IMG/VR virus record: IMGVR_UViG_3300043009_000039
Span: 21,822 to 85,821 of that record
DNA from: a virus
Lineage: Duplodnaviria; Caudoviricetes
Direction: 5' to 3' (one strand)
Length of the DNA: 64,000 bases
The translations under genes and the position numbers were made by a program. Below the pieces are notes generated by a model. It was not told where the DNA came from and did no database searches. It saw only the letters and a list, made by a program, of their open reading frames with translations. Every line of letters starts with the position of its first letter. The stretch's first letter is position 1. Positions 21,589-36,343 of this stretch are shown piece by piece.

Positions 21589-22532
21589 CTAATTAAACAG
21601 CTCGTTTCGCTCGTCGGGTAAAGTTTTGTTACATCTTGCGAGCACTTTTCTAACAGCTTCACGGAAAGTCACGCCGTTGTTTGTGTAGTTCATGACCATG
21701 TTGTAGAGCTTGGGGTAGGTTTTATAGAGCAGGTCGAACTTGTCCTCGAACTGAATCGAGAATCCGCATCCTACGCATCCCGTTCTGTTTGCACCCTGAT
21801 GGTAGACTTCGGCTATTTCGAGGTTGTAACGTTCGACATATTCGAGGATGTCTTTCTCCGTCCAAACAGAGAGAGGATTCGACATGCTCCGTTCGCCGTA
21901 GTAGTTACAGCCCTGATGTCTGAGCCACGTACCCGCACGCATCTGACTCTCGCTTGCCATCATCCCGAGGATTGGCGAGCGACCCGTCTGATGTTCGAAT
22001 TTCTTGAAAGGGTCTTTTTTGAGTTTGTCACAGCATCGGTTGGTGCAGTCGTAAGGTTCGTCTATCAGGTACCGCCATTTCAGCGGCAGGATGTAGCAGC
22101 CTTTGCGGGCCATAAACTTTTGAGAGGTGGCGGTGTTCGGGTCGTGACGTATTCGTCGAATCTTGTCCGATGTTTCCTTGCTTACGAGAGGGAATCCGTA
22201 TTCTTCCCAAACTTGCTTCGGGGTCAGTTTCGGGTAGATGGTCAGGATGTTATACCCCCCCTATGTTTAAGTTTGTTAACAAGGCTGACCACCGACGGGT
22301 TCTCATTTCGGGTGTTGCAGAACACGGCGAGAATGTCGGGGTAGATTCGTCGGCAGAGGTCTAAGAGTACCGTACTGTCGCGACCGCCCGAGAAGCCGAC
22401 ATAGACTTTATCCAATCCTCCCATTCGGGTAACGAACGAGGATATGACGTCGAGGCTGTGTTGAATCTTCTGCTCGAGCGACCATTGCTGTCTTTCTTCG
22501 AGGTCTTTGTAATCCAATTTCATAGGTTCCAT
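21589..22532 (-). CDS. PAPS-reductase-family (PP-loop, Fe-S) protein, split by a -1 frame change at a G7 tract
   Basis: N part FSGGRDSTVLL...NTRNE; C part CCDKLKK, GMMASES, RTGCVGC. The linking YGFPLVSK segment is in the -1 frame directly after G7 (22255-22261). Confidence 0.85.
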
Positions 22533-22571
22533 GTTTTGGTGAGTGTGAGCGGCGTCGTGCCGCCCGTAATG

Positions 22572-22847
22572 TCATTTGTTTTTCAATTCATCGCGAATCT
22601 CGGTAAGCAAGCGGACAATCTTGGTAAGTCCTACCCAGAAACCCGTGCCGACCACCGTAAAGCCCAAGACTATGAGACCATGTATGAACCCATCGGCTTT
22701 CCACAGAATCGCTTTGCAGAGCGCCGCCGCGGTTCCAAACGAGATGATGCCGGACAAGACCGCAACTATGTAGAGGAATGTTTCGGCTCCGCTTTTCGAG
22801 ATTGCTACGTTTTCTTTTGCTTCGTTGTTTACTTCATTTGTGTTCAT
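22572..22847 (-). CDS. Two-TM membrane protein (91 aa; start MNTNEV)
   Basis: Two hydrophobic helices; module upstream of the ATG at 22847. Confidence 0.75.
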   Translation of the reverse strand: MNTNEVNNEAKENVAISKSGAETFLYIVAVLSGIISFGTAAALCKAILWKADGFIHGLIVLGFTVVGTGFWVGLTKIVRLLTEIRDELKNK

Positions 22848-22971
22848 AACCGTAAGTTTTAGTTTCTGCAACATTGCATTGCGGACGGTCTGCTTTGACC
22901 GCCCTGAACCAACAAAACTTAAATTACGCCGCCATAGGCGGAGAGTGGGAGGCGGGTGAACCTCCCGTGTT

Positions 22972-23379
22972 TTAGTAGGTGTAGACAATCTCGTTGAAGA
23001 GAATTATCTGCCACAAGACGCTTGCATCGCTGACGTCAAACTCGCCCGATTTGAACAATGTAAACGCGCCGTAAGCCGCTATCAAATCTTCCTCGCCGTT
23101 AGCCTTAAAATTGCCGTCTAACGCATTTTTAAGCCCTCGTTGGATGTCCTCTAAGGAAACGAAGTAAACGCGGTCTCCGAGGCGATTTATGGCGTTTCTG
23201 AGCGTGCCGTATATTTCGATGTCATTATCGGTCGCCACCTTGATTGTGCCGCCCTCTTGGAAGAGCCGATGCGGGTCTGTATCTCCGTCGAAATACAAGT
23301 CCTCGTTGCCGTAAAGCGTGAGAATCAAATCTTCAAGGTCTGCTGCCGTAAGCTTTTCAATAAATTGTTTGTCGTTCAT
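22972..23379 (-). CDS. Acidic cassette protein (135 aa)
   Basis: ORF with upstream module. Confidence 0.8.
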   Translation of the reverse strand: MNDKQFIEKLTAADLEDLILTLYGNEDLYFDGDTDPHRLFQEGGTIKVATDNDIEIYGTLRNAINRLGDRVYFVSLEDIQRGLKNALDGNFKANGEEDLIAAYGAFTLFKSGEFDVSDASVLWQIILFNEIVYTY

Positions 23380-23430
23380 AACTAAAAGTATTTGGTGAGT
23401 GAAAAGCGGGCGGCTCTCACCGCCCCGAAA

Positions 23431-23793
23431 TCAGGACAGCTCATGGAATACTTTTTCGACAGCCTCCTCTAAACGGATATACGCCTGCGAGGACGTTTTG
23501 TAGTCGCCGACGTACATCTCAACCATGATTTCGCCGTGTTTGGTCATGATGATTTCGCCCGAGCGGTCGTCCTCTTCGCCCACTTCACTCGGGTAGAAGC
23601 CCATGTAGAGTGACTTGTTCCGTCCTATCTCGCAGGTGATAACCATTGACTTCCTCCCTTTCTGCCACTTTACGTCGCTGAAGAATGCGTGAGGAATGTA
23701 AGGCTCTTCGCACCAGTCCTTGATGCCGAGCTTGTCAATTACTTCTTTCAGCACATCGTATGCCGAGCATTTCGTTAAATCGAACTGTTTCAT
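23431..23793 (-). CDS. Cassette protein (120 aa)
   Basis: ORF with upstream module. Confidence 0.8.
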   Translation of the reverse strand: MKQFDLTKCSAYDVLKEVIDKLGIKDWCEEPYIPHAFFSDVKWQKGRKSMVITCEIGRNKSLYMGFYPSEVGEEDDRSGEIIMTKHGEIMVEMYVGDYKTSSQAYIRLEEAVEKVFHELS

Positions 23794-23930
23794 AGATTAC
23801 GTTTGTTTGGTGAGAAAATAGAAGGAGGGTCTTGTTCAAACCCTCCCTGCCTTGCATATCCGTCGCGGATGGCTCGGCTTCTGAAATACTTAAACAATTA
23901 TGAATCAGCGGGAGGTTTTCACCTCCCTTT

Positions 23931-24008
23931 TTAGTCCGCCCTGCCGTTTGTGAGGTCTGCGAACACATTCAAAATCTCAACGGCAAGAACAATGATGAAA
24001 AGCAACAT
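23931..24008 (-). CDS. 25-aa hydrophobic peptide (not in the ORF track)
   Basis: MLLFIIVLAVEILNVFADLTNGRAD; starts 13 nt after the stop of 24022..24210. Confidence 0.5.
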   Translation of the reverse strand: MLLFIIVLAVEILNVFADLTNGRAD

Positions 24009-24021
24009 AAAGGTAAGGTTT

Positions 24022-24210
24022 TTATCGGTTTGACAATTCTGATTCGATTAATTTTTTCAACCCCTGACGGGTATCCGCTTTCACGAACGTATAATATTTG
24101 CCGCCCGTGTCGAAGAATGCCTCGAACATTCCCTGCGGTGTCATTCTTATAGAACCGATGTAGTTGCCGTCACGTTCAATGTTTCCGTTTCTTTTAAATA
24201 CAATTTTCAT
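24022..24210 (-). CDS. Cassette protein (62 aa)
   Basis: ORF with upstream module. Confidence 0.75.
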   Translation of the reverse strand: MKIVFKRNGNIERDGNYIGSIRMTPQGMFEAFFDTGGKYYTFVKADTRQGLKKLIESELSNR

Positions 24211-24255
24211 AACTTGTAGTTTTTAATTGGTTTGTGCAGTCGGGTTGCCCCGACT

Positions 24256-24633
24256 TTATTCATTAGACATAATCTCATCAAGAAGCTTTTCCAATTTAAG
24301 CCCAATCTCTTCCAACGTTTTTTCCGAGCCGAGTCTTATTGCACTTTTAAAGATGTAAAACAAATCCTGCGTCCGAAACTCTCCGTAATCGCAGACCGTT
24401 TCACTTCCGTCCGTTTCATTGCATATGTAATCTGCTATTTCGTTTTTATAGAACGTTGAAAAATTGATGTAATCGTTTACACAAGCAAGATAAAAGTTGG
24501 CGAGCCAGCTCTTACCCAAATAATCTCTTTCGGGATAATTCTCGTTTTGGCTTTCCAAACTGAAATGCTTCTTGCACACTTTTACCACGATGACGTTAAA
24601 TTCTCTTACTCCGAGTTCTTTAAATGTAATCAT
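24256..24633 (-). CDS. Cassette protein (125 aa)
   Basis: ORF with upstream module. Confidence 0.8.
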   Translation of the reverse strand: MITFKELGVREFNVIVVKVCKKHFSLESQNENYPERDYLGKSWLANFYLACVNDYINFSTFYKNEIADYICNETDGSETVCDYGEFRTQDLFYIFKSAIRLGSEKTLEEIGLKLEKLLDEIMSNE

Positions 24634-24690
24634 AATTCTAAGTTTTAATCGGTTAATAATTGGCGAGCGGTCTTGTCGACCGCTTTAAGG

Positions 24691-24930
24691 CTAAACATAG
24701 CGCACTGCCCGGCCTTTACTTTTCGACAGCTGTTGGCGCAACAATTTTTTGTAGCCTCTTATATTGCATTCCATATTTCTGACGCATTCGTATGCCTCCG
24801 CTTTAGTCCAGAAGTAATATGTGTATTGCCAATACAAATCATATACAAACCACATTTTACCGCCTGAAACATCACACAGCCCTGCAAATCCAATGTTTTT
24901 ACCTTTGTTGAATGATTCTAATAGTGCCAT
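24691..24930 (-). CDS. Cassette protein (79 aa)
   Basis: ORF with upstream module. Confidence 0.75.
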   Translation of the reverse strand: MALLESFNKGKNIGFAGLCDVSGGKMWFVYDLYWQYTYYFWTKAEAYECVRNMECNIRGYKKLLRQQLSKSKGRAVRYV

Positions 24931-24993
24931 AATATCTGAGTTTTATTGGTTGAACATGGTGAGCGGTCGTAAGTCCTACAACCGCTCTTTAAG

Positions 24994-25539
24994 TTACAGC
25001 TCGCAGATGCCGATAACGTAATTGTGAGAGTCATAGCTGAACTCGACGGGCTGTTGCTTGACGGTATCGTAAAGCTCGCCGTTACAGATAATCAGCATCT
25101 CATCATCGTTTTTATCGTAAGCCGCGTCGCAGATTTTTTCGAATTGCTCTACCGCATCTTTTACTTCTTCGATGCTGTCGGCGTTTTCAAGCATCTCCAT
25201 AAGATTGCCTTTATTCTCTTTGAAATACTGTTGCCCCGTACCGTAAAACGTAATGCAGTCGTCAGACAGATAACGCTCTACGTCTATACCGTCACACATC
25301 CAATCGCGGAGTCTTGTGTAGAAATGATGCCCGTCGGGTCTGTCAAGCTCGAAGATGCATGTCTTTTTGAAGTACTTCTCTGCGACTTCGTTTGCAACGT
25401 CCATGTCCCTGAAGCCTATCAAAGCTTCTCTGACACCGTGAGGAAAATCGCTTTTGTCGTCGTTGGTTTCAACAATTCTAAGACTCGGGTAAACGTCCAC
25501 AATGTGCTGTAACTTTTCGGAATATTCTTCTCGTGTCAT
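24994..25539 (-). CDS. Acidic cassette protein (181 aa)
   Basis: ORF with upstream module; D/E-rich C-terminal half. Confidence 0.8.
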   Translation of the reverse strand: MTREEYSEKLQHIVDVYPSLRIVETNDDKSDFPHGVREALIGFRDMDVANEVAEKYFKKTCIFELDRPDGHHFYTRLRDWMCDGIDVERYLSDDCITFYGTGQQYFKENKGNLMEMLENADSIEEVKDAVEQFEKICDAAYDKNDDEMLIICNGELYDTVKQQPVEFSYDSHNYVIGICEL

Positions 25540-25594
25540 AATGTATAAGTTTTATTGGTTAGTAGTAGCGGGCGGGACGTCCCACCCTTAAAGG

Positions 25595-25978
25595 TTAGAA
25601 TTGAATGACCGAGCGTTTGTATTCCCAATGCCTTGCGTCCATAATCCTTGTCCGTTTCAGCTGACACAACGTGTATATCTTGTGAATATACTGAATGATT
25701 GCGGCTGTCGGGCGGGCGTCCTTTATGCAGTCCGCATTCTCTTCCGCAAACTTTCTCTCGTCAAACTCGGCGGAGTCTACGATTCTCTTTATGCCCGTGT
25801 TTACCATATCTCCGTCGTCATACAATACGTAGCAATAGACTTCGGAATAATTATCGGACAAAGAGCGCAGGGCGTTTTTCTGATATGTTTTCTCGTTTTG
25901 TTTCGCCGTTTTCTTTTCAGCTCCCTCGGGATTAATGTTGAGTAACGGCAGTCTGTCATAATACATATTCTTTTTCAT
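25595..25978 (-). CDS. Cassette protein (127 aa)
   Basis: ORF with upstream module. Confidence 0.8.
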   Translation of the reverse strand: MKKNMYYDRLPLLNINPEGAEKKTAKQNEKTYQKNALRSLSDNYSEVYCYVLYDDGDMVNTGIKRIVDSAEFDERKFAEENADCIKDARPTAAIIQYIHKIYTLCQLKRTRIMDARHWEYKRSVIQF

Positions 25979-26027
25979 AATCGTAAGTTTTGTTAGTACT
26001 CGTAGTCGGCCCGCAGACCGACTTTGG

Positions 26028-26369
26028 TCAATAAACGCTCTGTGGGTAATTTTTTAACGCCCAATCAATCGCTGATTGGCACTCTTTACGGGTTTTCCAC
26101 TTAACGCCCACGCCGTTTAATTTTTGCGGTATGCCATGAAGATAGTCATATACCACCCACCATATTTTGCCGTCCAACGCTTCGCGTTTGATTGGCCTGA
26201 ATCTGCCGAACAGTGCGCAGGAGCATTCAGCGAGTGTTCCTTTGCATTTAAATTCTCCGTTCAGATACGCGGTGTAGTACATATCGCCCATACAGTTCCA
26301 ATGGCGGTCAATTTCTCCGTATTTACCGCGATATTCATTCTTGGTGAACCATTGTGCATAATTTTCCAT
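26028..26369 (-). CDS. Cassette protein (113 aa)
   Basis: ORF with upstream module. Confidence 0.8.
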   Translation of the reverse strand: MENYAQWFTKNEYRGKYGEIDRHWNCMGDMYYTAYLNGEFKCKGTLAECSCALFGRFRPIKREALDGKIWWVVYDYLHGIPQKLNGVGVKWKTRKECQSAIDWALKNYPQSVY

Positions 26370-26421
26370 AATCGTAGCTTTATTGGTTAGATATTGTGGG
26401 CGGCTCTCGCACGCCCTTTGT

Positions 26422-26706
26422 TTAGAGTCTGCTGTAATATTTCAACAACGCGGCACAAATGTAGTAGTCATTGTAGTATCGCATCCATCCGCCGCTTATG
26501 AGCATATCGTTTATCTCGCTGTCACGGAGCTTTCTTGTTTCCCGCTCTTCGATATACGATACTTTCATTGTTTCCTCATCAACCGCCTCGATTTTGAACA
26601 ACCCGTGACACAAACGGTCGTCGTCATCATCCGTGAGTTGTTTGAGGGCGTCATAAACATCTTCTGCACTGTATGCAAATTCTACGGTTTTTTCTTTTGT
26701 TTCCAT
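26422..26706 (-). CDS. Cassette protein (94 aa; start METKEK)
   Basis: Module directly upstream of the ATG at 26706. Confidence 0.75.
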   Translation of the reverse strand: METKEKTVEFAYSAEDVYDALKQLTDDDDDRLCHGLFKIEAVDEETMKVSYIEERETRKLRDSEINDMLISGGWMRYYNDYYICAALLKYYSRL

Positions 26707-26753
26707 AATTCTTGTTTTTATTGGTTGGTTGCGGGCGGCATTAACCGCCACAA

Positions 26754-27038
26754 TTAAGGCAATGTTACGTAATAAAATCCGCACCCCTCTTTGATAAAAT
26801 TAAAACCGTTCTGTCTAACCCAGTCAGCAAAGCCGATAAAATATTTACCGTTTACCTCCAAATACTCCCCGTAAATGGTTTTCCCGATTTTCGCGTCCGG
26901 TCTATCGAGGTAAAGATATTGAAATTCAATCCGTACACGAGTTTTTCCTTTCATAAAGAGTTCTGTGAGGTACTTTTCGATTTGGCTGTAATCCAAATCT
27001 TTCGTCAAATCTGCTTTAATCTTTTGTGCTAAGTTCAT
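26754..27038 (-). CDS. Cassette protein (94 aa)
   Basis: ORF with upstream module. Confidence 0.8.
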   Translation of the reverse strand: MNLAQKIKADLTKDLDYSQIEKYLTELFMKGKTRVRIEFQYLYLDRPDAKIGKTIYGEYLEVNGKYFIGFADWVRQNGFNFIKEGCGFYYVTLP

Positions 27039-27180
27039 AATATGTAAGTTTTAGTTGGCAATTGTTAGCGGTCTGTGACCGCTATCTTTCAATCGGTTAA
27101 AAAAACGTGATTCATCAATTGTTTCGGCACGCTTAACAGAACCGGGACAACCCACACGCCCCCGAAGGATTCATTATCAT

Positions 27181-27417
27181 TCAGCGCTTCGGCAAGCTCT
27201 TCGTATGAAAAAATCCAAGCTCTTCTTCGGAATAAATCTCTTCCTCGGTAAGATTGAATGTTTTTTCCATCAATTCAAGCGCGTCAATATTGTCATCGAA
27301 CTTCTCCAAGTAGAACGCTTCAACGAATTTGCTTCTTTCGATTTCTTTACCGTTAACCGATATAGGACATACGAGAAAGAACGGTTCGTAACCGTCATGA
27401 GTCATAGTAATCTTCAT
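27181..27417 (-). CDS. Acidic cassette protein (78 aa; start MKITMT)
   Basis: Module directly upstream of the ATG at 27417. Confidence 0.75.
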   Translation of the reverse strand: MKITMTHDGYEPFFLVCPISVNGKEIERSKFVEAFYLEKFDDNIDALELMEKTFNLTEEEIYSEEELGFFHTKSLPKR

Positions 27418-27471
27418 AATTATAAATTTTAGTTGGTTAATAATGTGGCCGGCCCGAAAGCCAGCCAATGT

Positions 27472-27756
27472 TTATGAAAGAGTGAAGTTGCCACGGTATA
27501 GCTTGAACACCATCGCTTGCGCTGTGTCGTACAATTTATCAAGGACTTGATTCTGCTCCTTTCGATGAGCCTTGTATTGCTCTTCGCTTGTAATCACTCC
27601 TTCAGCGATGAGCCTTTTTGTCTCGGCAACCTGCTTGGAGATAATCGCAATCTCGAGTCGTCTGTACTGGTCTCTGATTTCGAATATCGACTTGCCATTC
27701 GGCTGTAACTTCACCCATGAGGCTAATTTTTTGCCTACATTGAATCTCTGTTTCAT
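27472..27756 (-). CDS. Cassette protein (94 aa)
   Basis: ORF with upstream module. Confidence 0.8.
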   Translation of the reverse strand: MKQRFNVGKKLASWVKLQPNGKSIFEIRDQYRRLEIAIISKQVAETKRLIAEGVITSEEQYKAHRKEQNQVLDKLYDTAQAMVFKLYRGNFTLS

Positions 27757-27808
27757 AATTTCTATTTTATTGGTTAAACATTGGCGAGCGGAGTAATCCG
27801 CTCATTGA

Positions 27809-28219
27809 TTACCACTTAACTTGTTCTACCTCGTCAAGCTCTTTGCGAATCGTGTCTATCAGCTTTCGAGTCAAAGTAACATCTTCGCACCCATACTCTA
27901 TAACGGACGGACATTGGTTAATCAGCGATATTACGCCTTGTGTAACCATTAAGACCATGTAATCTTCAGGGTCGTCAAACGGGTCTGTATAAGGGCCGCT
28001 GAGAACATCCCTTTCAAATTTCCAATAAGCCGACGCATCGGCACGCCATTCGCACAAGTATTCCAAGGCAAGCTCTTCGGACTCGGTGAGCGTGCCGTTG
28101 TAGTTTATGTCGTCCATAATGTAATCGCCTATATCACTTGCTTTGACTTCCATATCTTCTTTCCAAGGCAACTGCATTTTAGCCATTTCGCGGCAGTAAT
28201 CAGTGAAATTCTTTTTCAT
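27809..28219 (-). CDS. Acidic cassette protein (136 aa)
   Basis: ORF with upstream module. Confidence 0.8.
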   Translation of the reverse strand: MKKNFTDYCREMAKMQLPWKEDMEVKASDIGDYIMDDINYNGTLTESEELALEYLCEWRADASAYWKFERDVLSGPYTDPFDDPEDYMVLMVTQGVISLINQCPSVIEYGCEDVTLTRKLIDTIRKELDEVEQVKW

Positions 28220-28268
28220 AATTGTAAAGTTTTAAGTTTAGTTGTGAGCGGTAATAACCGCTCATTGA

Positions 28269-29611: not shown

Positions 29612-29938
29612 TCAATCTTTGTGGTAAAAGGTTAGAAAGTAATTGTAGCTCGTTTTCCGAGTGTCTACGTAAATATCTTCGGGTAACGACTGTTTGACCG
29701 CCTCGATTCTGTCCTCCAACCGTTTCATGGAAGCCACGCTGATTGGCGATTCGGCCACGCATATCTTCAGGCGGTTGGTCGTTACGGCGTATGTGGCGCA
29801 GATTGGGACATTTGCGGCATAGCCGACCGACATTTCCTGCGACACTACTCTTGTGTCGAGGCGGCGGCCCTCGTCGAACAACTCATCATAGATTTCACTT
29901 ACCGAGATTGATTTTCCGTTTAATAATGCTCTCATCAT
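29612..29938 (-). CDS. Cassette protein (108 aa)
   Basis: ORF with upstream module. Confidence 0.8.
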   Translation of the reverse strand: MMRALLNGKSISVSEIYDELFDEGRRLDTRVVSQEMSVGYAANVPICATYAVTTNRLKICVAESPISVASMKRLEDRIEAVKQSLPEDIYVDTRKTSYNYFLTFYHKD

Positions 29939-29988
29939 AATTCAAAAGTTTTTAGGTGTGCGGTAGGCAAAGATAGCCTACCTTTTGT

Positions 29989-30633
29989 TTAATACGGCGT
30001 CCCATCTTCAAGAAACTCGTATTCGTTCAAATTCAGTTCTTCTTCGACCGCCTCGTCCGAATAGCCCCAATCCACGTCGTCACCGTAGGCATCGGCCAAG
30101 GCGTCCACGCTTTTCTGTATCAAATCCTCCATCGTCGTATCGTTGTCGGGATGCTTCATGTAATCGACAATCGGCTGTATCACCTCATAGTCGCAGCATA
30201 CGCCCGTGAGCGGATAACTTGCCTCGGCGTCGTCGTACATTATTCGGCTCTTGCGCTGTTTCTTGTAGTCGCCCCGATAGAATGTACGCGGCTTGACCAA
30301 ATACGGCATGATGTTGTTGCGTATGTACCGTTGAAGCAGTTTGCCGGACAACTCTTCAAGGCAGAGGTATTCGCTACCGTCCTCGGTGTCTATCATGTAG
30401 CACCAAGAGTCGTCGTTGAACTTCGGGCTGAACCATGTGCGTCCGCGGTCGTCTTTCACGTCGATACGTATGTCAAGCAGCTTCTCGAAAGCCTTGAGCG
30501 TTCCGATATAGTCGTCGGCGATACATTCTTCGTGATATGCGGCGCATTCGCCTCGCTTTGATTCAATCGCTTTTTTCTTTGCTTCTTCGGAAAGTTCGTC
30601 GTACTTGTAAAGTTTTACTTCTAAGGTTCTCAT
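29989..30633 (-). CDS. Acidic cassette protein (214 aa)
   Basis: ORF with upstream module; YKYDELSEEAKKKA...YEFLEDG termini typical of a mobile-element hypothetical family. Confidence 0.8.
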   Translation of the reverse strand: MRTLEVKLYKYDELSEEAKKKAIESKRGECAAYHEECIADDYIGTLKAFEKLLDIRIDVKDDRGRTWFSPKFNDDSWCYMIDTEDGSEYLCLEELSGKLLQRYIRNNIMPYLVKPRTFYRGDYKKQRKSRIMYDDAEASYPLTGVCCDYEVIQPIVDYMKHPDNDTTMEDLIQKSVDALADAYGDDVDWGYSDEAVEEELNLNEYEFLEDGTPY

Positions 30634-30680
30634 AATTTCAAGTTTTAAGTTGGTTAATCGCGAGGGGCGAACCCCTCAAT

Positions 30681-30908
30681 TTACAAGACCTCGTGAGGCA
30701 GAACAGTGTCACGCGATACAACGTCGAACTCATGTGTGGAGCCGTTCAATTTAAGCCCGTAAATGTGCGCGTATTGGATTTCTCTCGCCCACATGGATAG
30801 ATTATCCAACTGCATCCTAAAACGCCTTAGAGCGGCATTTTTAGAGGTAAATATGGCTTTATAGCCGCAGGTCTGTCTGTCGAAAATTCTCAATTCATAA
30901 ATTATCAT
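30681..30908 (-). CDS. Cassette protein (75 aa)
   Basis: ORF with upstream module. Confidence 0.75.
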   Translation of the reverse strand: MIIYELRIFDRQTCGYKAIFTSKNAALRRFRMQLDNLSMWAREIQYAHIYGLKLNGSTHEFDVVSRDTVLPHEVL

Positions 30909-30957
30909 AGCTTCTAAGTTTTATTGGTTGGTTGCAGACGGATTGCTCCGTCTTGAT

Positions 30958-31149
30958 TCAATATCCCTGCAGGTACGACGGGGCTTCGTCGTCCTCGGTT
31001 TCACAAGCTCTGTGACGTTCCACAATTTCACAGTTGCAACCGTAGTTCATGAGCAGTTCTTCGCGCACGTCCGACGCTTCTTCGTATGTGTCGAAACAAT
31101 CTTCAATGCATCCCGCGGCTTTATTCCAAAGTTCAAATTCAGTGTACAT
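30958..31149 (-). CDS. Acidic cassette protein (63 aa; start MYTEF)
   Basis: Module upstream of the ATG at 31149. Confidence 0.75.
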   Translation of the reverse strand: MYTEFELWNKAAGCIEDCFDTYEEASDVREELLMNYGCNCEIVERHRACETEDDEAPSYLQGY

Positions 31150-31192
31150 AATCAATTAGTTTTAGTTGTGAGCGGATTGCTCCGCCCGTGAT

Positions 31193-31711
31193 TCATTGTT
31201 GACCCCAATAAGTCCATGTTTTAACCTTTGACATTCCGTAGCGTTTGAGGTACGTCCGAAGTCGTTTCTCGAACTTGTCGCGTTCTTCGCGAACAAATCG
31301 TTCAAGCGGCTCGTAATCCTCTTCTTTCGGTTCGATACAGCTGTCGTAGTTGTGCCCCGAAATTCCGTAGATGTTCGCCTCTTTATAGGCGGTCATTTCG
31401 TAATGGTAGAGGTAGACTTCGCGTTTGGCGATACACTCGAGCATCCAGTCGTATTCGCGAAGATTCTCTTTCATGAAGTAGTCTTCGCTTGTACGCGCGT
31501 ATTCAGCTTGTTCGACCGCTCTGTTATAATCGAAGCTGTCGTCAAAGCAGAACTTTGTCTCAATGCGCGGCTTGCCTATAATTACGATTTTACCGTCGTC
31601 AAGTTTGATTGCATTCGAGAATCCCCGCATCATATATTCGGGGTTAAGGCCCATCTTTTCATATTCGCGCATGATTTCATCCTGCAATTCATGTTGCTTG
31701 ATATTCTTCAT
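31193..31711 (-). CDS. Cassette protein (172 aa)
   Basis: ORF with upstream module. Confidence 0.8.
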   Translation of the reverse strand: MKNIKQHELQDEIMREYEKMGLNPEYMMRGFSNAIKLDDGKIVIIGKPRIETKFCFDDSFDYNRAVEQAEYARTSEDYFMKENLREYDWMLECIAKREVYLYHYEMTAYKEANIYGISGHNYDSCIEPKEEDYEPLERFVREERDKFEKRLRTYLKRYGMSKVKTWTYWGQQ

Positions 31712-31812
31712 AATTCTAAGTTTTAGTTGGTTAAACAGTACGCGGCAACAGCTCGGGCCGCCGCCGCGTTTTTTAAGGCTGTACTATACAGCCCTCGCCA
31801 AATACCTCTCGG

Positions 31813-32148
31813 TTAATTCTTATACACCCTTTGGTTAATTCTTTTCACATACAGCGACCACGTTGTAAAGTGATTGGTTTCAAGGCATTGGCACGTCACA
31901 CGGCCTATCAGGTCGCAATAGCCCTTTGTTTCGGGCGTGTTCATGTAGGATTCCGTGATTCGGTAAGTTCTTTCGGGTTCGCCGGGCGCTCTGTAAAACC
32001 ACGAGCCGCAGCGCACACCGTATTCGATTTCCCGCATCTGTTCCTTTGCTTTCTTCAAACTTGTAAATGCAAATGTCGGAATGGAGCATGATTGCCACGT
32101 ACTGCCTTCAGTCCACTGATGTTCGTTGATAATATAAATATAATCCAT
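31813..32148 (-). CDS. Cassette protein (111 aa)
   Basis: ORF with upstream module. Confidence 0.8.
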   Translation of the reverse strand: MDYIYIINEHQWTEGSTWQSCSIPTFAFTSLKKAKEQMREIEYGVRCGSWFYRAPGEPERTYRITESYMNTPETKGYCDLIGRVTCQCLETNHFTTWSLYVKRINQRVYKN

Positions 32149-32209
32149 AATGATAAGTTTTATTGGTTTAACACGGCAGACGGTCTTTCAACCGTCTTTT
32201 TGCGGATAA

Positions 32210-32581
32210 TTACTCATCTTCGTCGTCGTAGCTCATCTCGATACAGTCGTGCCAATCGCCGTCGGCGTATATTTCGTCGGAGTAATAATCCGCCTCCCAC
32301 TCCACGTCCTCTTCACTTGCAGACACAAATCTTCCGTTGGCGTCCTGCAGGATATAGCGGTCGGCGAGGTTCACTTGTCCGCCCCGCAGGTCGCGCACGA
32401 GTTCCATCGGATTGTCTTTGTATCGCTGAATATTAAAGAAATCTTCGTTCAGCTCATGCCACACACAATCGTAGTATCTCTGATTCTCGAAATATCGGTT
32501 CAGCAGGGCCAATCGTTGGCCATGTGTCAGACTCTTAAATTTTTCTTTCCATGCTTCGCGGCGAGAATATTCTTTTTCCAT
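32210..32581 (-). CDS. Cassette protein with very acidic C-terminus (123 aa)
   Basis: ...SEEDVEWEADYYSDEIYADGDWHDCIEMSYDDEDE; upstream module. Confidence 0.8.
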   Translation of the reverse strand: MEKEYSRREAWKEKFKSLTHGQRLALLNRYFENQRYYDCVWHELNEDFFNIQRYKDNPMELVRDLRGGQVNLADRYILQDANGRFVSASEEDVEWEADYYSDEIYADGDWHDCIEMSYDDEDE

Positions 32582-32643
32582 AATTCATAAGTTTAATCGG
32601 TTAATAATTGCAAGAGGTCGGTCGGGAAACCAACCTCTTCGGC

Positions 32644-32949
32644 TCAGACAAGTTCAATGTCGATTCCATACGGAAGCGATTCGCTATTTTCGTAATAGTC
32701 GAATTTATACGTAGGTCTAAGGCCCAGTTCGCGTTTACATAAGCGTTTTTCTATCACCTGCTTTATCTTCCCCTCGTCGATTACTTTCGTAAGTTCGACT
32801 TCGTAATGTGGCGTAGACGTACCGATTGTTTCGTGCGTGATTCGTGCAATTGCAACAAGTCCGTGGAACTTGTCATAAAAATAGATGCCGCTCGCCGCGA
32901 ACACTACGTACATTTCAACTCCGTAATTCTTGGTTCTTAAAAATTCCAT
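32644..32949 (-). CDS. Cassette protein (101 aa; start MEFLRT)
   Basis: Module upstream of the ATG at 32949. Confidence 0.75.
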   Translation of the reverse strand: MEFLRTKNYGVEMYVVFAASGIYFYDKFHGLVAIARITHETIGTSTPHYEVELTKVIDEGKIKQVIEKRLCKRELGLRPTYKFDYYENSESLPYGIDIELV

Positions 32950-33011
32950 AACTGTAAATTTATTGGTTAGCTGTAAGAGGTCGCGTGACGACACACAACC
33001 TCCGATTCGTT

Positions 33012-33281
33012 TCATTTGTCAAGCGTGCAAGTCGCATAGTAAGGCGAAAAGCAACCGTCTTTATAAAGCGACGCCGCATAGCCCCGACGGGTCTTGTAGA
33101 CTTTCACGCAGCCCGATTCATACGAGCTTCGTTCTTTGCACACAAAGCCCCCTACCGCCTTGTAGGTTTTCGGCTTCTTTTCTTTCGGTTTGATTGAACC
33201 CGCGTAATGCATTGTCACGCCCGTAAACAGTTCGCCGTTTACCTTAAAAGGCTTTTCAGAGGTAAGTTTGTAAGTTTTCAT
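33012..33281 (-). CDS. Cassette protein (89 aa)
   Basis: ORF with upstream module. Confidence 0.75.
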   Translation of the reverse strand: MKTYKLTSEKPFKVNGELFTGVTMHYAGSIKPKEKKPKTYKAVGGFVCKERSSYESGCVKVYKTRRGYAASLYKDGCFSPYYATCTLDK

Positions 33282-33341
33282 AATTCAGTAGTTTTATTGG
33301 TTCGTGGAAGAGGGCGTGTTTTCGGGCACACCCTCCGTAAT

Positions 33342-33467
33342 TCAGTCGATTTCGACCGTCGAATCGTTCAAATCCACGTGCGCGTATAAATCTTCGGCAA
33401 AGTCGGGTTCTATAAACTCTTCAAATACGCGCAATTCGCCTTGGAAATAAATAGTTCCGTCAAGCAT
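33342..33467 (-). CDS. 41-aa strongly acidic peptide (not in the ORF track)
   Basis: MLDGTIYFQGELRVFEEFIEPDFAEDLYAHVDLNDSTVEID; its start overlaps the stop of 33460..33645. Confidence 0.65.
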   Translation of the reverse strand: MLDGTIYFQGELRVFEEFIEPDFAEDLYAHVDLNDSTVEID

Positions 33468-33645
33468 TTTTGTTTCCTCCCTTCTTTTCGTCGGTCGGGT
33501 CTATTATTTCCCCTATCGGAAACACGCCCATAAGGCCCGACAGAAACGCCAAATAGCAAACATCCGTGCCCATAAAGTTGTAGAACACAAACACGGCGAA
33601 AGCTTCAAAGAATACAAACAGAAGAAACAGATAAATCGTTCTCAT
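33460..33645 (-). CDS. Two-TM membrane cassette protein (61 aa)
   Basis: Hydrophobic; upstream module. Confidence 0.75.
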   Translation of the reverse strand: MRTIYLFLLFVFFEAFAVFVFYNFMGTDVCYLAFLSGLMGVFPIGEIIDPTDEKKGGNKNA

Positions 33646-33708
33646 AATTCATAAAGTTTTATTGGTTGGTAACAGTAAGCGGTTCGACCCCGAAAGAGCC
33701 AAACCGCC

Positions 33709-33969
33709 TTAATTCATTCCCATCCCCACGGACACAGCTCGCCCGCGGGGGGTAATCTGCCACGACAGTTCGTTCCTGCCGTCGTAGATAGTCCATCCGA
33801 TGCCGTTGTCGCCCCTTTTATGCAGGGCGATATGCAGACAGCGGCGCACGATTCGCTTCAGTTCGGTTGAGTGTAAAGTCTTACAGAAACTTTCACTCGC
33901 GATAATTGCGGAAAACTCACCCTTTCGGGCAAAGTTCGTCCATGCGATTTCATCGTAAAAGGTTTTCAT
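33709..33969 (-). CDS. Cassette protein (86 aa; start MKTFYD)
   Basis: Module upstream of the ATG at 33969. Confidence 0.75.
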   Translation of the reverse strand: MKTFYDEIAWTNFARKGEFSAIIASESFCKTLHSTELKRIVRRCLHIALHKRGDNGIGWTIYDGRNELSWQITPRGRAVSVGMGMN

Positions 33970-34030
33970 AAATAGTTTTATTGGTTGGTTCGGAGAGGGT
34001 TCGCCCCGATACGGTTTGAACCCCCTGATT

Positions 34031-34216
34031 TCAGGCGAACATATCGTACAGTTCTTCAAGGCGTGCCTTTGCGTCCTCGATTCGGGCGAATAGAGTCGTT
34101 CGGTTCCAGTACTCGAAGTGATTCTTTTCACCTACTGTTTCAAACGAAATTTCGGCTACTTGTCCGTCGTGTTCGTAGCTGTTCCATGCCACGTAATAGT
34201 AAGTTTTTGCTTTCAT
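34031..34216 (-). CDS. Cassette protein (61 aa)
   Basis: ORF with upstream module. Confidence 0.75.
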   Translation of the reverse strand: MKAKTYYYVAWNSYEHDGQVAEISFETVGEKNHFEYWNRTTLFARIEDAKARLEELYDMFA

Positions 34217-34284
34217 AATTTATTAAGTTTTATTGGTTGGTTAATTCGCAGACGGTTCGACCCCGAAGAATCGAACCCCCTGAT

Positions 34285-34722
34285 TCAGATTTGGTCCAGA
34301 AAGTCGGCCAAGTCTTTTTCCGTAGCTTTCAGTCCGAGCGCACGTTTGCGCATCAGATATTCTTTGATTCCGAATCGGGATATAAGAACATCCCGATTTG
34401 ATTCGTCCTGAAAGAGTCGGTCGATAAGTTCGTCTTGCATAGCAAGCTCGTACTTCAGATTTTCGGCCTCCTGCTTCGACGCTTCCAGTTCTTTGCGAGC
34501 GTCCTCCAACGCTTTCGCAGTCCCTTTGAGGTCTGCGATAATCGCATAGTTCTTCCGCGCTTCGTTTACCGCGGACACAAACAAACCCTTTGTGTTTTCA
34601 GGGAGTTTGCTCCAAATTTCACAGAACATATTTTTATCTAACTCGCAGAACATATAGATATAGTTCGCAACTTTGTACTCTTCGGCCTTGCAGCCTCTTT
34701 CGATAAATTCATTAAGTAACAT
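34285..34722 (-). CDS. Coiled-coil cassette protein (145 aa)
   Basis: YMFCELDKNMFCEIW motif followed by a heptad region; upstream module. Confidence 0.8.
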   Translation of the reverse strand: MLLNEFIERGCKAEEYKVANYIYMFCELDKNMFCEIWSKLPENTKGLFVSAVNEARKNYAIIADLKGTAKALEDARKELEASKQEAENLKYELAMQDELIDRLFQDESNRDVLISRFGIKEYLMRKRALGLKATEKDLADFLDQI

Positions 34723-34787
34723 AACAGTAAGTTTTATTGGTTAAACGTGGAAAGAGGCTTCAGGATTAAGCCCGAAACCTCTCTAAT

Positions 34788-34973
34788 TTAAAATTCGAAG
34801 TCTGTAAATACCTTGAATGTTCCTTTATGAAACGATTCGTAGTTCGTGTCGTCAAATTTGTAGACGGAATACATTTTGGTCGCACGGTCGTATTCGCCGC
34901 GCACCCAAACAACGGCGGACGATTCTTTCATTTTAAAGAGTTCGCCCTTTTTAAGTTCTGATAATTTTTTCAT
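34788..34973 (-). CDS. Cassette protein (61 aa)
   Basis: ORF with upstream module. Confidence 0.75.
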   Translation of the reverse strand: MKKLSELKKGELFKMKESSAVVWVRGEYDRATKMYSVYKFDDTNYESFHKGTFKVFTDFEF

Positions 34974-35018
34974 AATTCGTTTGATTGATTCGTAAAGGGT
35001 CGAATTGCCCCGACCCGA

Positions 35019-35372
35019 TTAAGCAAAGTAATTCTTTACAGTTTGGTAGTCCAGTCCGTAACGCTTACGTATTCGCGCAATTTCGGCGTTAAATTCGCGT
35101 GCTGAGTCGAAACAGCACAGTTCGAGGGCTTTAATCAATTCAAGCCCGTAAAGGCTCGGATTATTCACCTCGATAGCTCGCAGTTCGCCCCGACGGTTTC
35201 GGGCGCAATTATCCACGAATTTTATCGTTTCTTTGTACCCTTTGCCCGCCCCTTTCTTTTTTCGGCTCGATACGACGTATTTGCCCCGATTTTTCGGTTC
35301 AGGCTCGCACGGTTCAGGCTCGCACGCTTTTTTAGCTTTATAAAGCCCTTCATAGTACTCTAATAAGTTCAT
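35019..35372 (-). CDS. Cassette protein (117 aa)
   Basis: ORF with upstream module; short internal tandem repeat (CEPEPCEPEP). Confidence 0.8.
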   Translation of the reverse strand: MNLLEYYEGLYKAKKACEPEPCEPEPKNRGKYVVSSRKKKGAGKGYKETIKFVDNCARNRRGELRAIEVNNPSLYGLELIKALELCCFDSAREFNAEIARIRKRYGLDYQTVKNYFA

Positions 35373-35452
35373 AATTGTTTAAGTTTGGTTCATAGTCCGA
35401 CGCCCAGTAGTAAGGGCGTTTCGTCGCAATTCTCAGCGACTCTTCAGGGACT

Positions 35453-35710
35453 TTAAAACTGCATCGTTTCAAAAGATACAATTTCAAAGTAATTCAAATT
35501 CACCTCGATTTTCGGGCACAGTTTTTCCCCGAAAAAGTACAGTTTAACGCCAGTAAAGCGCATGAAACGGTTTATAAGCCGCTCAGGCGTGTCTTGATAA
35601 CGGTCGTTGAAATACGATACGACGAACCCGTTTTCAACTCTTAATCTCGGTTCAATCAGGGCAAATTCAAGCCCTGATTCTTTTTCGCGTAATACGATTT
35701 TGTAGTTCAT
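35453..35710 (-). CDS. First cassette protein of the array (85 aa)
   Basis: ORF with upstream module. Confidence 0.75.
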   Translation of the reverse strand: MNYKIVLREKESGLEFALIEPRLRVENGFVVSYFNDRYQDTPERLINRFMRFTGVKLYFFGEKLCPKIEVNLNYFEIVSFETMQF

Positions 35711-36343
35711 AACAGTAAGTATTTTAGTTCAACATAGTAAGGGCGCGGGGGTTCGAACCCCGTAAAAATTCCACAATTCGCCCCTGCATCGGTTTACGTC
35801 AACGATGCACTTTGACGTTTGCCCCTTAATTCAGGGGCTTAATAACCAAAAACTTAATTATGTTTTGCCGCTACCTTGTTACGTGCTCGGCACGCCTCCT
35901 GCATTTACTTTCATAGTTCGTCCAGTACATAGGACGGACGGCCAACTAAGCGCAATTATATTAGCGCAATTCGTTGACGTTTGGATAATTCATTCACTGC
36001 AGTTGTCAAGACGGCTCAAATATTTTTATCGTTAAATCCTAAAAACGTCCTGCATCAACCGCTAAGCCGGAGCGACTTTTTTGCTCGAAAAAAGCGCAAT
36101 TTTTCCCCTTTCAAGATTTTACCCTTGTCCAGTTCGGTTTTTTAATTCTCTTAACAATTTGACCCTCTTCCTTAACAAAACGTTACACTTGGTAACTTCG
36201 ATTAACTCTTTTACAACCCGATTTAAACTTTTTTATGATTTCGGGCGTCCTACTTGAGGAAAAGTCTCTTTTTTGTTAATTTGGATAGTCAAATTATTAA
36301 AATTTGCCAAAGAACTCCGTTAGAGTTCTGACCAACTCTAACG
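35711..36343 (-). ncRNA. Long structured 5' leader / candidate ncRNA
   Basis: No convincing minus-strand ORF; many hairpins (e.g. 36318-36343, 35821-35838, 35748-35761). Confidence 0.45.

Follow-up and report, generated by a model that had tools for sequence, protein, structure and literature searches.

A single host-type promoter faces a hyperplastic operon of ~13 kb in which 34 small genes are each led by the same module, a hairpin followed by a G-free leader. The operon belongs to a complete 85.8-kb tailed phage that infects a Bacteroidota host, and we analyzed it mainly in a stretch of 64,000 nucleotides of this genome, referred to below as the window. We consider it probable that the host RNA polymerase reads the whole array, presumably early in infection, that the hairpins and the leaders, which lack a Shine-Dalgarno (SD) sequence, act at the RNA level, and that the leader also provides homology for cassette exchange. 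The original prediction was borne out in part. A standardized expression module for each gene and a set of swappable, unrelated genes are supported, but the view of the motif as a private phage signal and the analogy to T7 RNase III processing are not.

Anatomy and gene content of the array

The modules lie on the minus strand, before ATGs that run from 35710 down to 22532 (Table 1), and they share the order stop codon, GC hairpin, AACCAA..AAAACTT tract, and ATT-ATG. All 34 gene starts for which this order had been predicted were recovered, the last three or four being weak (ATGs 23793, 23379, and 22532). In the example module of Table 1, the hairpin (28843-28860) has a 7-bp GC stem and a GCGA loop, and the leader occupies positions 28812-28835; the remaining 33 modules are the 43 to 68 nt immediately above their respective ATGs. 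Intergenic gaps within the array have a median of 54 nt, and none of the 33 is 15 nt or shorter, compared to 30 of the 55 gaps outside the array in the same genome. The contrast between genes that each form their own unit and the stop/start coupling used elsewhere, as originally described, is therefore real.

No paralogs were found among the array proteins at E<1e-3, and Pfam families were absent except for the phosphoadenosine phosphosulfate (PAPS) reductase. Six array proteins matched PHROGs, all of unknown function, and the array genes are ORFans that may serve an anti-defense function. As predicted, the PAPS-reductase gene closes the array; it is split into two open reading frames (ORFs), and an intact homolog of 328 aa is present in L124.

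Table 1. Positions of the array, its genes, and associated features in the window
Feature	Position	Strand	Remarks
Host-type (sigma-ABfr) promoter	36347..36376	-	Consensus TTTG-N18-TACTTTTG; the sole one upstream of the array
Untranslated leader, ~630 nt	35711..36340	-	From promoter to first cassette
Array, 34 module-led small genes	22242..35710	-	61-214 aa; frames checked from ATG to stop
Array genes (end..ATG)	35453..35710, 35019..35372, 34788..34973, 34285..34722, 34031..34216, 33709..33969	-	
Array genes (end..ATG)	33460..33645, 33012..33281, 32644..32949, 32210..32581, 31813..32148, 31193..31711	-	
Array genes (end..ATG)	30958..31149, 30681..30908, 29989..30633, 29612..29938, 29245..29565, 28866..29210	-	
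Array genes (end..ATG)	28269..28811, 27809..28219, 27472..27756, 27181..27417, 26754..27038, 26422..26706	-	
Array genes (end..ATG)	26028..26369, 25595..25978, 24994..25539, 24691..24930, 24256..24633, 24022..24210	-	
Array genes (end..ATG)	23431..23793, 22972..23379, 22572..22847, 22242..22532	-	
Example module, before ATG 28811	28812..28860	-	Hairpin and G-free leader
Recently exchanged cassette	27446..27756	-	Gene with ATG 27756 and its 3' hairpin (27446-27467)
Second exchanged cassette	25560..26030	-	ATG 25978 with flanking hairpins
PAPS-reductase-like, N-terminal part	22242..22532	-	Last module gene
PAPS-reductase-like, C-terminal part	21589..22113	-	
RecT-family single-strand annealing protein	52644..53546	+	PF03837, E=2.4e-43

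The leader as a probable SD-less translation start region

The leader comprises ~23 nt, is G-free, and has the consensus TTAACCAATAAAACTTAnAATT followed by AUG. Among the array starts, A is present at -12 in 97% and at -13 in 91%, a purine occupies -3 in 94%, and G accounts for 6% of the region from -25 to -1, while A at -6 is found in only 39%. SD sequences are lacking in the phage genome. In Bacteroidia, A at -3, -6, -12, and -13 promotes initiation (Baez 2019, PMC6847099), and GeneMarkS-2 reports an A-rich non-SD motif that has a TAAAAA core and lies ~9 nt from the start (PMC6028130). The leader length likewise agrees with the modal 5' untranslated region of Bacteroides thetaiotaomicron, 23 nt (PMC7366714). 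A weaker form of the same profile was seen in the non-array genes of the phage and in 192 Bacteroidota host genes. From this agreement in start grammar, the array motif appears to be the SD-less translation initiation region of Bacteroidia at consensus strength. We also considered the motif as a promoter and rejected this on the grounds of the G-free leader with A at -11 to -14 and -3, which are determinants of SD-independent initiation. The conserved CC at -17/-18, CUU at -8 to -10, and UU at -1/-2 are accounted for by no published determinant.

The spacing between motif and ATG is tight (5 to 8 nt), and the distance from hairpin to ATG is variable (22 to 37 nt). The leader is predicted to be accessible: leader stretches of 20 nt had a median probability of 0.087 of being unpaired, versus 0.0002 across the transcript, and 30 of the 34 leaders were at or above the 93rd percentile. 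Furthermore, in 27 of 32 modules the leader was more open in silico next to the native hairpin than next to a shuffled one (p=5e-4), the insulation being modest (0.068 versus 0.044). We propose that this unstructured, G-free leader would offer adenines at -11 to -14 and -3, and that Bacteroidia ribosomes, disregarding SD sequences, would choose start codons by those adenines. The cistrons would therefore initiate individually and not via coupling to a neighbor.

Hairpins act as sense-strand RNA

The array hairpins act as sense-strand RNA. The sense fold was stabler than the antisense fold in 27 modules versus 4 (Wilcoxon p=6e-5), and 46 of the 316 hairpin pairs are G-U pairs. The corresponding sense:antisense counts in three related phages were 23:3 (G012), 13:3 (G003), and 13:7 (G001). 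Over the four phages, GNRA or UNCG tetraloops were found in 35/57 cases in sense (11/20 in the studied phage and 9/14, 9/12, and 6/11 in the others) and in 3/57 in antisense. The hairpins span 18 to 32 nt, and their sequences differ freely, with no conserved end boxes. The 8 nt past the stem contain only 26% T, hence no U tract, whereas true terminators of the phage do have T runs. Stem-loops without U tracts were nevertheless strong terminators in a study of promoter-early stem-loops (PeSLs) (PMC2839356), which counts against the read-through that we propose. However, given a single promoter, termination of as little as 10% at each hairpin would leave ~3% of the transcripts after 34 units.

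In the reading that we favor, each ~54-nt spacer would act on RNA through a stem-loop part and a leader part. The GC-rich stem-loop, mostly with a GNRA or UUCG tetraloop, would be part of the 3' end of the upstream cistron, where it most likely blocks 3'-to-5' exonucleases and sequesters G/C-rich sequence from pairing with the leader. Any attenuation of transcription would be weak at most.

A sharper version of this reading, compatible with it and possible although well short of probable, invokes a host endonuclease of the RNase E/G or Y type that would cut the A/U-rich single-stranded tract 3' of the hairpins. The products would be monocistronic mRNAs with a standard ~23-nt 5' untranslated region (5'UTR) and a protective 3' hairpin. 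The processing of T7 early RNA and plastid intercistronic expression elements are similar to this scheme. In its favor, the 22 to 37 nt from hairpin end to ATG bracket the modal 5'UTR of Bacteroides thetaiotaomicron, which is 23 nt (PMC7366714), the same sequence begins at the 5' end of the transcript in host genes, and the hairpin moves with the upstream gene in an exchanged cassette. Additionally, the first module has a tRNA-like fold instead of a hairpin, and RNase P or Z could be recruited by it. However, no conserved cleavage motif beyond a loose (C)TAYTRTT was found between hairpin and leader, and the T7 mechanism itself, originally cited as an analog, fails on anatomy because the stems, at 7 to 13 bp, are too short for RNase III.

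The leader is specific to the array

With up to 2 mismatches, AAGTTTTATTGGTT was matched 14 times in the window, against 0.84 matches expected from shuffles, and none of 100 shuffles reached 14. The six exact units and three near-exact ones of the original prediction were all confirmed. The exact copies lie 7 to 9 nt before ATGs 25539, 30908, 32148, 33645, 34216, and 34722, so that the positions originally assigned to them are those of the ATGs and not of the motif; the three further copies agree at 13/14 bases (24938, 33289, and 33973). The whole 85.8-kb genome was then scanned with a position matrix covering the 22 nt upstream of the ATG. A threshold of 8 bits was reached at 37 of 2,531 ATGs, 29 of which are array starts, and the top 21 all belong to the array. 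Only 2 of 61 non-array genes reached this score, and their median was -5.4 bits, compared to 16.8 for the array. The capsid and portal genes scored -1.7 and -4.7 bits, respectively. The leader is therefore class specific and not simply the strongest available ribosome-loading sequence.

Nor is the motif equally common before host genes. In five host genomes, the 14-mer occurred at background level, ~1 to 4 per Mb versus ~140 per Mb in the phage. The exact 24-mer was found 49 times in 185,579 species genomes, ~45 of these in Bacteroidota of many orders, where it precedes ordinary genes such as those for EF-Ts, SSB, and SusC-like proteins. Seven host copies begin 7 to 10 nt past a TAnnTTTG box, so in those genes the 24-mer is 5'UTR.

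Such specificity could suggest a regulatory handle, which we regard as rather unlikely: a trans-acting factor would read the leader and switch the whole gene set together. Candidates would be a phage or host RNA-binding protein or an antisense RNA (exact complement at 61490-61504), and in T4, RegA and RegB act on early start regions (PMC3014915). Outside the array, the full consensus is found only at two promoter-proximal genes and is absent from capsid, portal, and replication genes, and positions beyond the known ribosomal determinants are conserved. Moreover, there are two gene-less antisense copies (0 and 1 mismatch) against ~0.02 expected, one of them immediately ahead of a U-tailed terminator with a GAGA loop in a 3'UTR. 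However, G001 and G003 yielded no antisense copies, part of the candidate seed is predicted to be paired, and no RNA-binding protein, RegA/RegB-like or otherwise, was identified. The leader is also found again in phages with hardly any genes in common, as would be expected for a reader on the host side more than for one on the phage side.

One promoter upstream of the array

Full-consensus sites (TTTG-N17-21-TAnnTTTG) number 8 in the genome, all intergenic, versus 1.36 in shuffles. Exactly one of them faces the array, with a predicted transcript start at ~36340, and none lies inside it (22.5 to 35.7 kb), in agreement with the claim that the array stands behind one promoter. The arrays of G001 and G003 likewise have one such promoter, 0.6 to 1.8 kb upstream. 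The untranslated leader contains no minus-strand ORF and ends in the tRNA-like fold (35735-35785), a sub-threshold Rfam match to mascRNA-menRNA (27.8 bits, E=0.045). In the operon that we propose, the host RNA polymerase would start at this promoter and transcribe all 34 cassettes.

It is improbable that, as in strict PeSLs, the hairpins terminate and the tracts are promoters, with every gene a separate transcription unit and its 5'UTR very short or absent. The closest known system is built in this way (PMC2839356, PMC4122927), and a Flavobacteriia-type phage, L014, has TAnnTTTG boxes 5 nt before many ATGs. In the studied array, however, the box is present in 1 of 34 modules, the hairpins lack U tracts, and the motif is ATG anchored, G-free, and unstructured, and lies downstream of the promoter box in host genes. 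Additionally, six-frame searches detected no sigma70 region 2, and no polymerase was found when the larger proteins were scanned against Pfam and PHROGs; a search for T7-type RNA polymerase gave no match here, but its control likewise matched in no genome. An unrecognized promoter class, or a phage factor redirecting the host polymerase to the motif, is conceivable.

Cassette turnover among related phages

Syntenic arrays were found in G001 (22 modules), G012 (27 modules), and G003 (~19 modules), which have only 6, 5, and 1 genes, respectively, in common with the studied array. Shared cassettes occur in differing order and are 24 to 94% identical, and G001 has 26 of the 71 non-array genes in common with the studied phage, versus 5 of the 33 array genes. 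As anticipated for swappable genes, the relatives show gain, loss, replacement, and re-ordering.

The cassette with ATG 27756 is 92.2% identical in nucleotide sequence to L146:7075-7400 of G012 over 322 alignment columns, with flanks of 38 to 46% identity on both sides. Its identity begins at the ATG region of its own leader and ends where the next leader starts; in this one informative case, the only high-identity cassette with sharp recombination junctions, the junctions fall inside the module. The cassette with ATG 25978 has 77% amino acid identity to L011:15049-15429 of G001, the other cassettes shared in that comparison being 24 to 47% identical. Its similarity stops at the next ATG, and its upstream hairpin has kept its pairing despite changes on both sides. 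Judging from these alignments, related phages appear to have swapped single genes at the shared leader. We propose that the leader would double as a homology patch, because the same leader recurs 34 times and in related phages, and that single cassettes (gene plus 3' hairpin) would be exchanged, inserted, deleted, and re-ordered at leaders, possibly by the RecT protein acting on short homologies.

That the hairpins are attC-like sites for a dedicated recombinase, such as the serine recombinase at 18490-19233, is very improbable: promoterless cassettes stand behind one promoter with an inverted repeat at the end of each unit, and the array is followed by a resolvase-family gene in G000 (the studied phage), G001, and G012, but the hairpins are short and carry tetraloops, in contrast to the imperfect attC hairpins of 57 to 141 nt, they vary freely without conserved end boxes, their GNRA/UUCG loops argue for an RNA over a DNA function, the observed junctions are in leaders, and a six-frame search found no tyrosine recombinase.

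Comparison with known systems

The closest known system is that of the PeSL cassettes in the hyperplastic regions of T4-type phages (Arbiol et al. 2010, PMC2839356; Comeau et al. 2014, PMC4122927), the present modules being without a promoter. In both, a conserved stem-loop and start-region element flanks unrelated ORFans in a variable region and gives expression signals as well as homology for shuffling, with junctions within the element. However, PeSLs have a strong sigma70-like promoter and an SD sequence, and the present modules have neither: all 34 units depend on one upstream promoter, what is conserved is an SD-less translation leader, and the phage is not T4-like and has a Bacteroidota host.

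Similarly, the start-associated sequences (SAS) and extended SAS of cluster K mycobacteriophages (Pope et al. 2011, PMC3203893) are short conserved sequences just upstream of many starts, often with an inverted repeat further upstream, and are thought to act in translation initiation. Unlike the present motif, which is G-free, follows the SD-independent rules of Bacteroidia, and occurs in one contiguous array with turnover, they are G-rich with an SD-like core and scattered over the genome.

The early regions of T4 and T7 also contain many small early genes separated by very stable tetraloop hairpins (T4 intercistronic UUCG hairpins, T7 RNase III sites), and their start regions share sequence that a phage factor can target (RegB/RegA targets, PMC3014915). 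For the present phage, no homolog of RegA or RegB was found, RNase III would need longer stems, and the shared sequence is not an SD. Integrons and attC arrays (CALINs) resemble the array in their promoterless cassettes, common promoter, terminal inverted repeat, and high turnover, but the array is devoid of an integrase, of attC-type structure, and of conserved boxes, and its junctions are in the leader and not in the hairpin.

Finally, the SD-independent initiation regions of Bacteroidia (PMC6847099; GeneMarkS-2 group B, PMC6028130; Arpin et al. 2026, PMC13000457) share with the array the lack of an SD, an A tract at -11 to -14 along with A at -3, a leader of ~23 nt, and little secondary structure. 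Host leaders are loosely A-rich, whereas in the array a near-identical word of 22 to 24 nt, with the additional conserved CC, CUU, and UU, is repeated 34 times in one operon.

Phage genome, host and transcription of the array

The virus record, of which the window covers bases 21822-85821, is 85,821 bp long, 100% complete by CheckV, and has a G+C content of 46.7%. It encodes a terminase, a portal, a major head protein and a 2,529-aa tape measure, together with a DnaB-like helicase, a sliding clamp, RecT, three DNA methylases, an antirepressor and a serine recombinase. Neither megablast against GenBank phages nor a search with the 255-aa divergent gene returned a useful relative. The gene starts are devoid of Shine-Dalgarno (SD) sequences and rich in A, and the full Bacteroidota promoter consensus (TTTG-N17-21-TAnnTTTG) was found at 8 sites, all at sensible intergenic spots, against 1.36 in shuffles. 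Six-frame searches of the complete genome gave no match to sigma70 region 2 or to a tyrosine recombinase (IntI/Xer-like, PF00589). Taken together, these features point to a Bacteroidota host whose own polymerase would transcribe the phage genes.

No full promoter site lies inside the array, and the -7 box (TAnnTTTG) is present in only 1 of the 34 modules. Reading the repeated motif as a promoter for a phage polymerase or sigma factor was set aside, given the lack of sigma70 region 2 in six frames and of any polymerase in the protein scans; a search for T7-type RNAP (PF00940) also gave no match but is uninformative, its control having matched in no genome. Two array-bearing relatives, G001 and G003, have one promoter each about 1.5-1.8 kb upstream of their arrays, and G001 and a third relative, G012, carry one further promoter site each inside the array. 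Upstream of the array promoter of our phage (window 36655-36725), we observed consecutive short tandem repeats of the GTAGGTAGTAG type. They sit in a 1.2-kb non-coding control region between divergent operons and might serve as a series of binding sites or form an origin-like element.

Features located in the window and in related phages
Feature	Position	Strand	Remark
Sole full promoter consensus facing the array	36376-36347	minus	consensus match
tRNA-like fold with GGTTCGAACC T-arm-like hairpin	35735-35785	minus	stands in place of the first module's hairpin
Region with inverted leader copy, 1 mismatch	22895-22972	minus	between cassettes ATG 23379 and ATG 22847
PAPS-reductase-like gene	21589-22532	minus	split: 96-aa and 174-aa ORFs
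Serine recombinase (resolvase family) gene	18490-19233; G001 28280-29029; G012 16776-17489	minus (window)	after the array in all three phages
Region with antisense copy, exact complement of the 14-nt motif	61448-61592	minus	3'UTR of 134-aa gene (61590-61994)

The repeated unit of the array is a spacer

All minus-strand starts from ATG 35710 to ATG 22532 were read, which confirmed the 34 module-led gene starts of the original prediction; the thirty-fourth module (ATG 32949) was picked up by a position matrix. The six exact and three 13-of-14 copies of the motif named earlier are all present, the numbers quoted for them being positions of the ATGs and not of the motif. The 14-nt core motif is indeed over-represented, with 14 matches against 0.84 expected. 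A typical spacer measures 43-68 nt and consists of the stop codon, 1-10 nt, a GC hairpin, 8-15 nt, the tract (T)TAACCAA-N1-3-AAAACTT, N3-5 and ATT-ATG. Thirty of 55 gaps elsewhere in the phage are 15 nt or shorter, against 0 in the array, in line with the spacing contrast that had been claimed. The variable region is thus built of ORFans separated by a conserved composite intergenic motif with a stable stem-loop. MAFFT alignment of the modules fails to register the variable hairpins, and each module was folded separately instead of by a covariance model.

Using a 22-nt matrix, we found that 37 of 2531 ATGs score at least 8 bits, 29 of these 37 being array starts, as are all 21 best-scoring ATGs. 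Only 2 of 61 non-array genes reach this score, and both are first genes of the two plus-strand operons adjoining the control region of the array. The capsid and portal genes score below 0.

Because the 35 array proteins include no paralogs, the repeated unit of the array is the spacer and not the gene. The only Pfam family in the array is the split PAPS reductase at its distal end, and six other array proteins match PHROGs of unknown function. In an Atlas search, the 214-aa protein fell into a widespread viral family containing only hypothetical proteins, with no annotation, and the 180-aa protein had no match. The cassettes form a catalogue of unexplored small phage proteins. The PAPS-reductase homolog of a relative (L124:9578-10564) is one 328-aa gene, and its neighbourhood has no array; the split in our phage may reflect a frameshift, or else programmed shifting at a run of G. 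We also noticed a 41-aa ORF (window 33342-33467, minus strand) that overlaps the end of the preceding gene and has a strong SD-like sequence of the GGAGG type in front of it, which is odd since host ribosomes are thought to ignore SD.

The conserved tract resembles an SD-less translation leader

The leader is anchored to the ATG, the motif ending 5-8 nt upstream of it, whereas the distance from hairpin to ATG varies from 22 to 37 nt. A is found at -12 in 97% and at -13 in 91% of the leaders, and a purine at -3 in 94%; A at -6 is present in only 39%, and G makes up 6% of positions -25 to -1. The distance from the end of the TAAAAC core to the ATG is 8-10 nt. The hallmarks of an SD-less start in Bacteroidia are the lack of an SD, A at -12/-13 and -3 (and at -6), and a core rich in A that lies about 9 nt before the start codon. 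A at -12, -13 and -3 raises initiation in Flavobacterium johnsoniae (PMC6847099), the non-SD motif reported by GeneMarkS-2 for Bacteroides and Flavobacterium matches the TAAAAC core at about 9 nt (PMC6028130), and the modal 5'UTR of B. thetaiotaomicron, 23 nt, matches the leader in length (PMC7366714). The other phage genes and 192 host genes have the same start profile in a weaker form.

We then considered predicted structure in the 15-kb transcript. A 20-nt stretch of leader is unpaired with a median probability of 0.087, against 0.0002 overall, and in accessibility 30 of the 34 leaders reach the 93rd percentile of the transcript or exceed it, in agreement with low structure at the start region. 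Judged by its sequence, the conserved tract is best read as a translation leader and not as a promoter. Pairing of the leader with 16S rRNA, as in an epsilon-type enhancer, was rejected, the duplexes being no better than shuffled ones (Alistipes, p=0.27; Bacteroides, p=0.56).

The leader word in host genomes

The exact 24-nt leader word was scanned in one genome per species across 185,579 species. It was found at 49 sites, about 45 of them in Bacteroidota of many orders (loci L045-L093), in front of ordinary genes such as those for EF-Ts, SSB and SusC-like receptors. In 9 cases there is a TAnnTTTG box upstream; 7 of these boxes are 7-10 nt before the motif, which in those host genes is therefore the 5'UTR. 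A rough estimate from host position frequencies, taking about 1/10 of the species as Bacteroidota, predicts about 5 exact sites. As 49 were found, the word seems mildly favoured in Bacteroidota; since it frequently makes up the entire 5'UTR of a gene of ordinary function, a preference for this leader word may extend through the whole phylum.

The shorter 14-nt motif occurs in 2-14 copies per 3-8 Mb in five Bacteroidota genomes, not above the reversed control, and in 12 copies in the 86-kb phage. Only 2 of 25 unselected host copies are at gene starts. A generic host regulon motif was rejected on the lack of enrichment over the reversed control in these five genomes. The motif is thus at background in hosts; equal frequency there would have spoken against the original prediction. 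The leader uses the translational language of the host, and its dense repetition is a feature of the phage.

The hairpins act at the RNA level

The hairpins of the 34 modules range from -9 to -24 kcal/mol and are 18-32 nt long, with perfect stems of 7-13 pairs, tetraloops and ends that are not shared. The sense RNA folds better than the antisense in 27 modules, the reverse being true in 4 (p=6e-5), owing to 46 G-U pairs. Similarly, GNRA or UNCG account for 11 of 20 four-base loops read in sense and 2 of 20 read in antisense, with about 5% expected by chance. Both biases recur in three other genomes, and over all four genomes the tetraloop counts are 35/57 in sense and 3/57 in antisense. The hairpins are therefore RNA elements of the sense transcript.

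Intrinsic (Rho-independent) terminators have a U tract directly after the GC hairpin, which the array hairpins lack: the 8 nt after the stem contain 26% T, while the genuine terminators of the phage have T runs, and only two distal modules (23793 and 23379) have T-rich tails. Moreover, appreciable termination at each of 34 serial hairpins behind one promoter would be expected to silence the distal genes. The proposed analogy with T7 RNase III processing did not hold either, since T7-type sites are irregular duplexes of about 20 bp or longer and the array stems of 7-13 pairs are too short. When the hairpin segment was shuffled, leader accessibility fell, if only modestly, in 27 of 32 modules (p=5e-4).

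An Rfam scan for known RNA families gave no match at gathering score. The tRNA-like fold at the head of the array had a sub-threshold match to the tRNA-like mascRNA family (27.8 bits, E=0.045) and a weaker, overlapping sub-threshold match to tmRNA; this fold might signal processing by RNase P/Z.

Cassettes are exchanged between related phages

G001, whose terminase is 42% and whose head protein is 71% identical to those of our phage, has a 22-module array, and G012 (head protein 74% identical) one of 27 modules. Both are in a syntenic position, with the genes for the recombinase and the clamp next to them. About 19 modules are present in G003, which is less closely related (terminase 25%). The L017/L018 lineage has the same leader without hairpins, showing that leader and hairpin are separable.

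The array varies much more than the remaining genome does, homologs in G001 being found for 26 of 71 non-array genes and only 5 of 33 array genes. Our phage has 6 array genes in common with G001 and 5 with G012, these two have 1 in common, and none is present in all three. The order of common genes is changed, and not fixed as the original prediction had named as a counterargument; their identities range from 24 to 94%.

We found one sharp case of exchange. The cassette with ATG 27756 is 92.2% identical in nucleotide sequence to G012 over 322 columns, with 38-46% identity in both flanks and different neighbouring genes in the two phages. The identity starts at the ATG region of the cassette's own leader, covers the gene and its 3' hairpin, and ends where the next leader starts. 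Both junctions are thus located in leaders, bearing out for this single case the expectation that gains and losses break inside the module. The cassette with ATG 25978, whose protein is 77% identical to that of G001, has the same limits, and pairing in the hairpin upstream of it is kept through change on both sides. From the limits of these two cassettes, the exchange unit is the gene with its 3' hairpin, crossovers falling in the common leader. RecT, present in our phage, may act in this exchange. Homogenisation of leaders within genomes was not supported: mean Hamming distances of about 11.1 within and 11.7-12.0 between genomes gave no clear concerted evolution. The serine recombinase gene of G001 itself carries an array-type leader, and no integrase was found in the phage.

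A possible regulatory role of the leader

Alternatively, the leader could be a regulatory handle, that is, a class-specific address label of early cassettes in several unrelated Bacteroidota phages, read by a dedicated reader. We consider this unlikely, and keep it alive for three reasons: the full consensus is confined to one gene class; CC at -17/-18, CUU at -8 to -10 and UU at -1/-2 are conserved beyond the published determinants; and there are two gene-less antisense copies of the motif, one at 22906-22920, within the transcript of the array, the other at 61490-61504, immediately ahead of a terminator. The first is flanked by three hairpins, with no gene start there. At the second, complementarity to ..CTTGAAAT-type leaders reaches about 21 nt; a GAGA-loop hairpin of 10 bp, two of its pairs being G-U, follows directly, then a U run, which would give this copy an sRNA-like shape. 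Its seed is partly paired by prediction, and neither G001 nor G003 has a counterpart.

If the address-label reading were true, the reader would be a high-affinity site for bS1 or another host RNA-binding protein, or the exact antisense copy of the phage in the 3'UTR at 61.49 kb. Cassettes would come first on SD-blind ribosomes early in infection and be shut off jointly later, and the CC, CUU and UU positions would mark a hitherto undescribed feature by which start sites are selected in Bacteroidia. In this class, start choice proceeds without SD pairing, with A-6, A-12, A-13 and bS1 as candidate contributors (PMC13000457). Returning to the leader as a translation start, about 100 natural, near-isogenic leaders before unrelated genes are available in the array and in its relatives. 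As their conserved positions exceed the known ones, they provide a ready mutational map and standard translation parts for Bacteroides engineering.

Comparison with known systems

The array does not qualify as an integron, given the size of its hairpins, their lack of conserved boxes, the type of recombinase (serine only) and where the junctions fall. The attC-type hairpins are imperfect, 57-141 nt long and have conserved end boxes, unlike the short perfect stems of the array. The analogy drawn with the start-associated sequences of cluster K mycobacteriophages stood in part: the architecture is alike, but those sequences are G-rich (PMC3203893), and their 13-bp consensus is absent from the array, whose motif is different and G-free.

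L014 (IMGVR_UViG_3300025641_000013), a low-GC Flavobacteriia-type phage, also has the 214-aa cassette gene. Here, many ATGs follow a TAnnTTTG promoter box at a distance of only about 5 nt (..CATTTGAATT-ATG; e.g., 762, 2805, 8614 and 9345), which implies that its early mRNAs would be leaderless or nearly so. This is a promoter-led version of the cassette idea, in contrast to the promoter-less modules of the array.

The closest known system is the PeSL cassettes of T4-type phages, in which a stem-loop, an early promoter and SD elements flank ORFans and mediate shuffling (PMC2839356, PMC4122927). The two are alike in logic and in their role in recombination. However, each PeSL motif has a strong host-type early promoter, of which there is none inside the array, and an SD, whereas the array leader is SD-less. 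Because of these two differences, the modules would represent a translational counterpart of PeSL rather than a member. The array would thereby carry the PeSL idea, that conserved expression modules double as recombination linkers for trading accessory genes between phages, to another phage group and to a module acting in translation and not in transcription.
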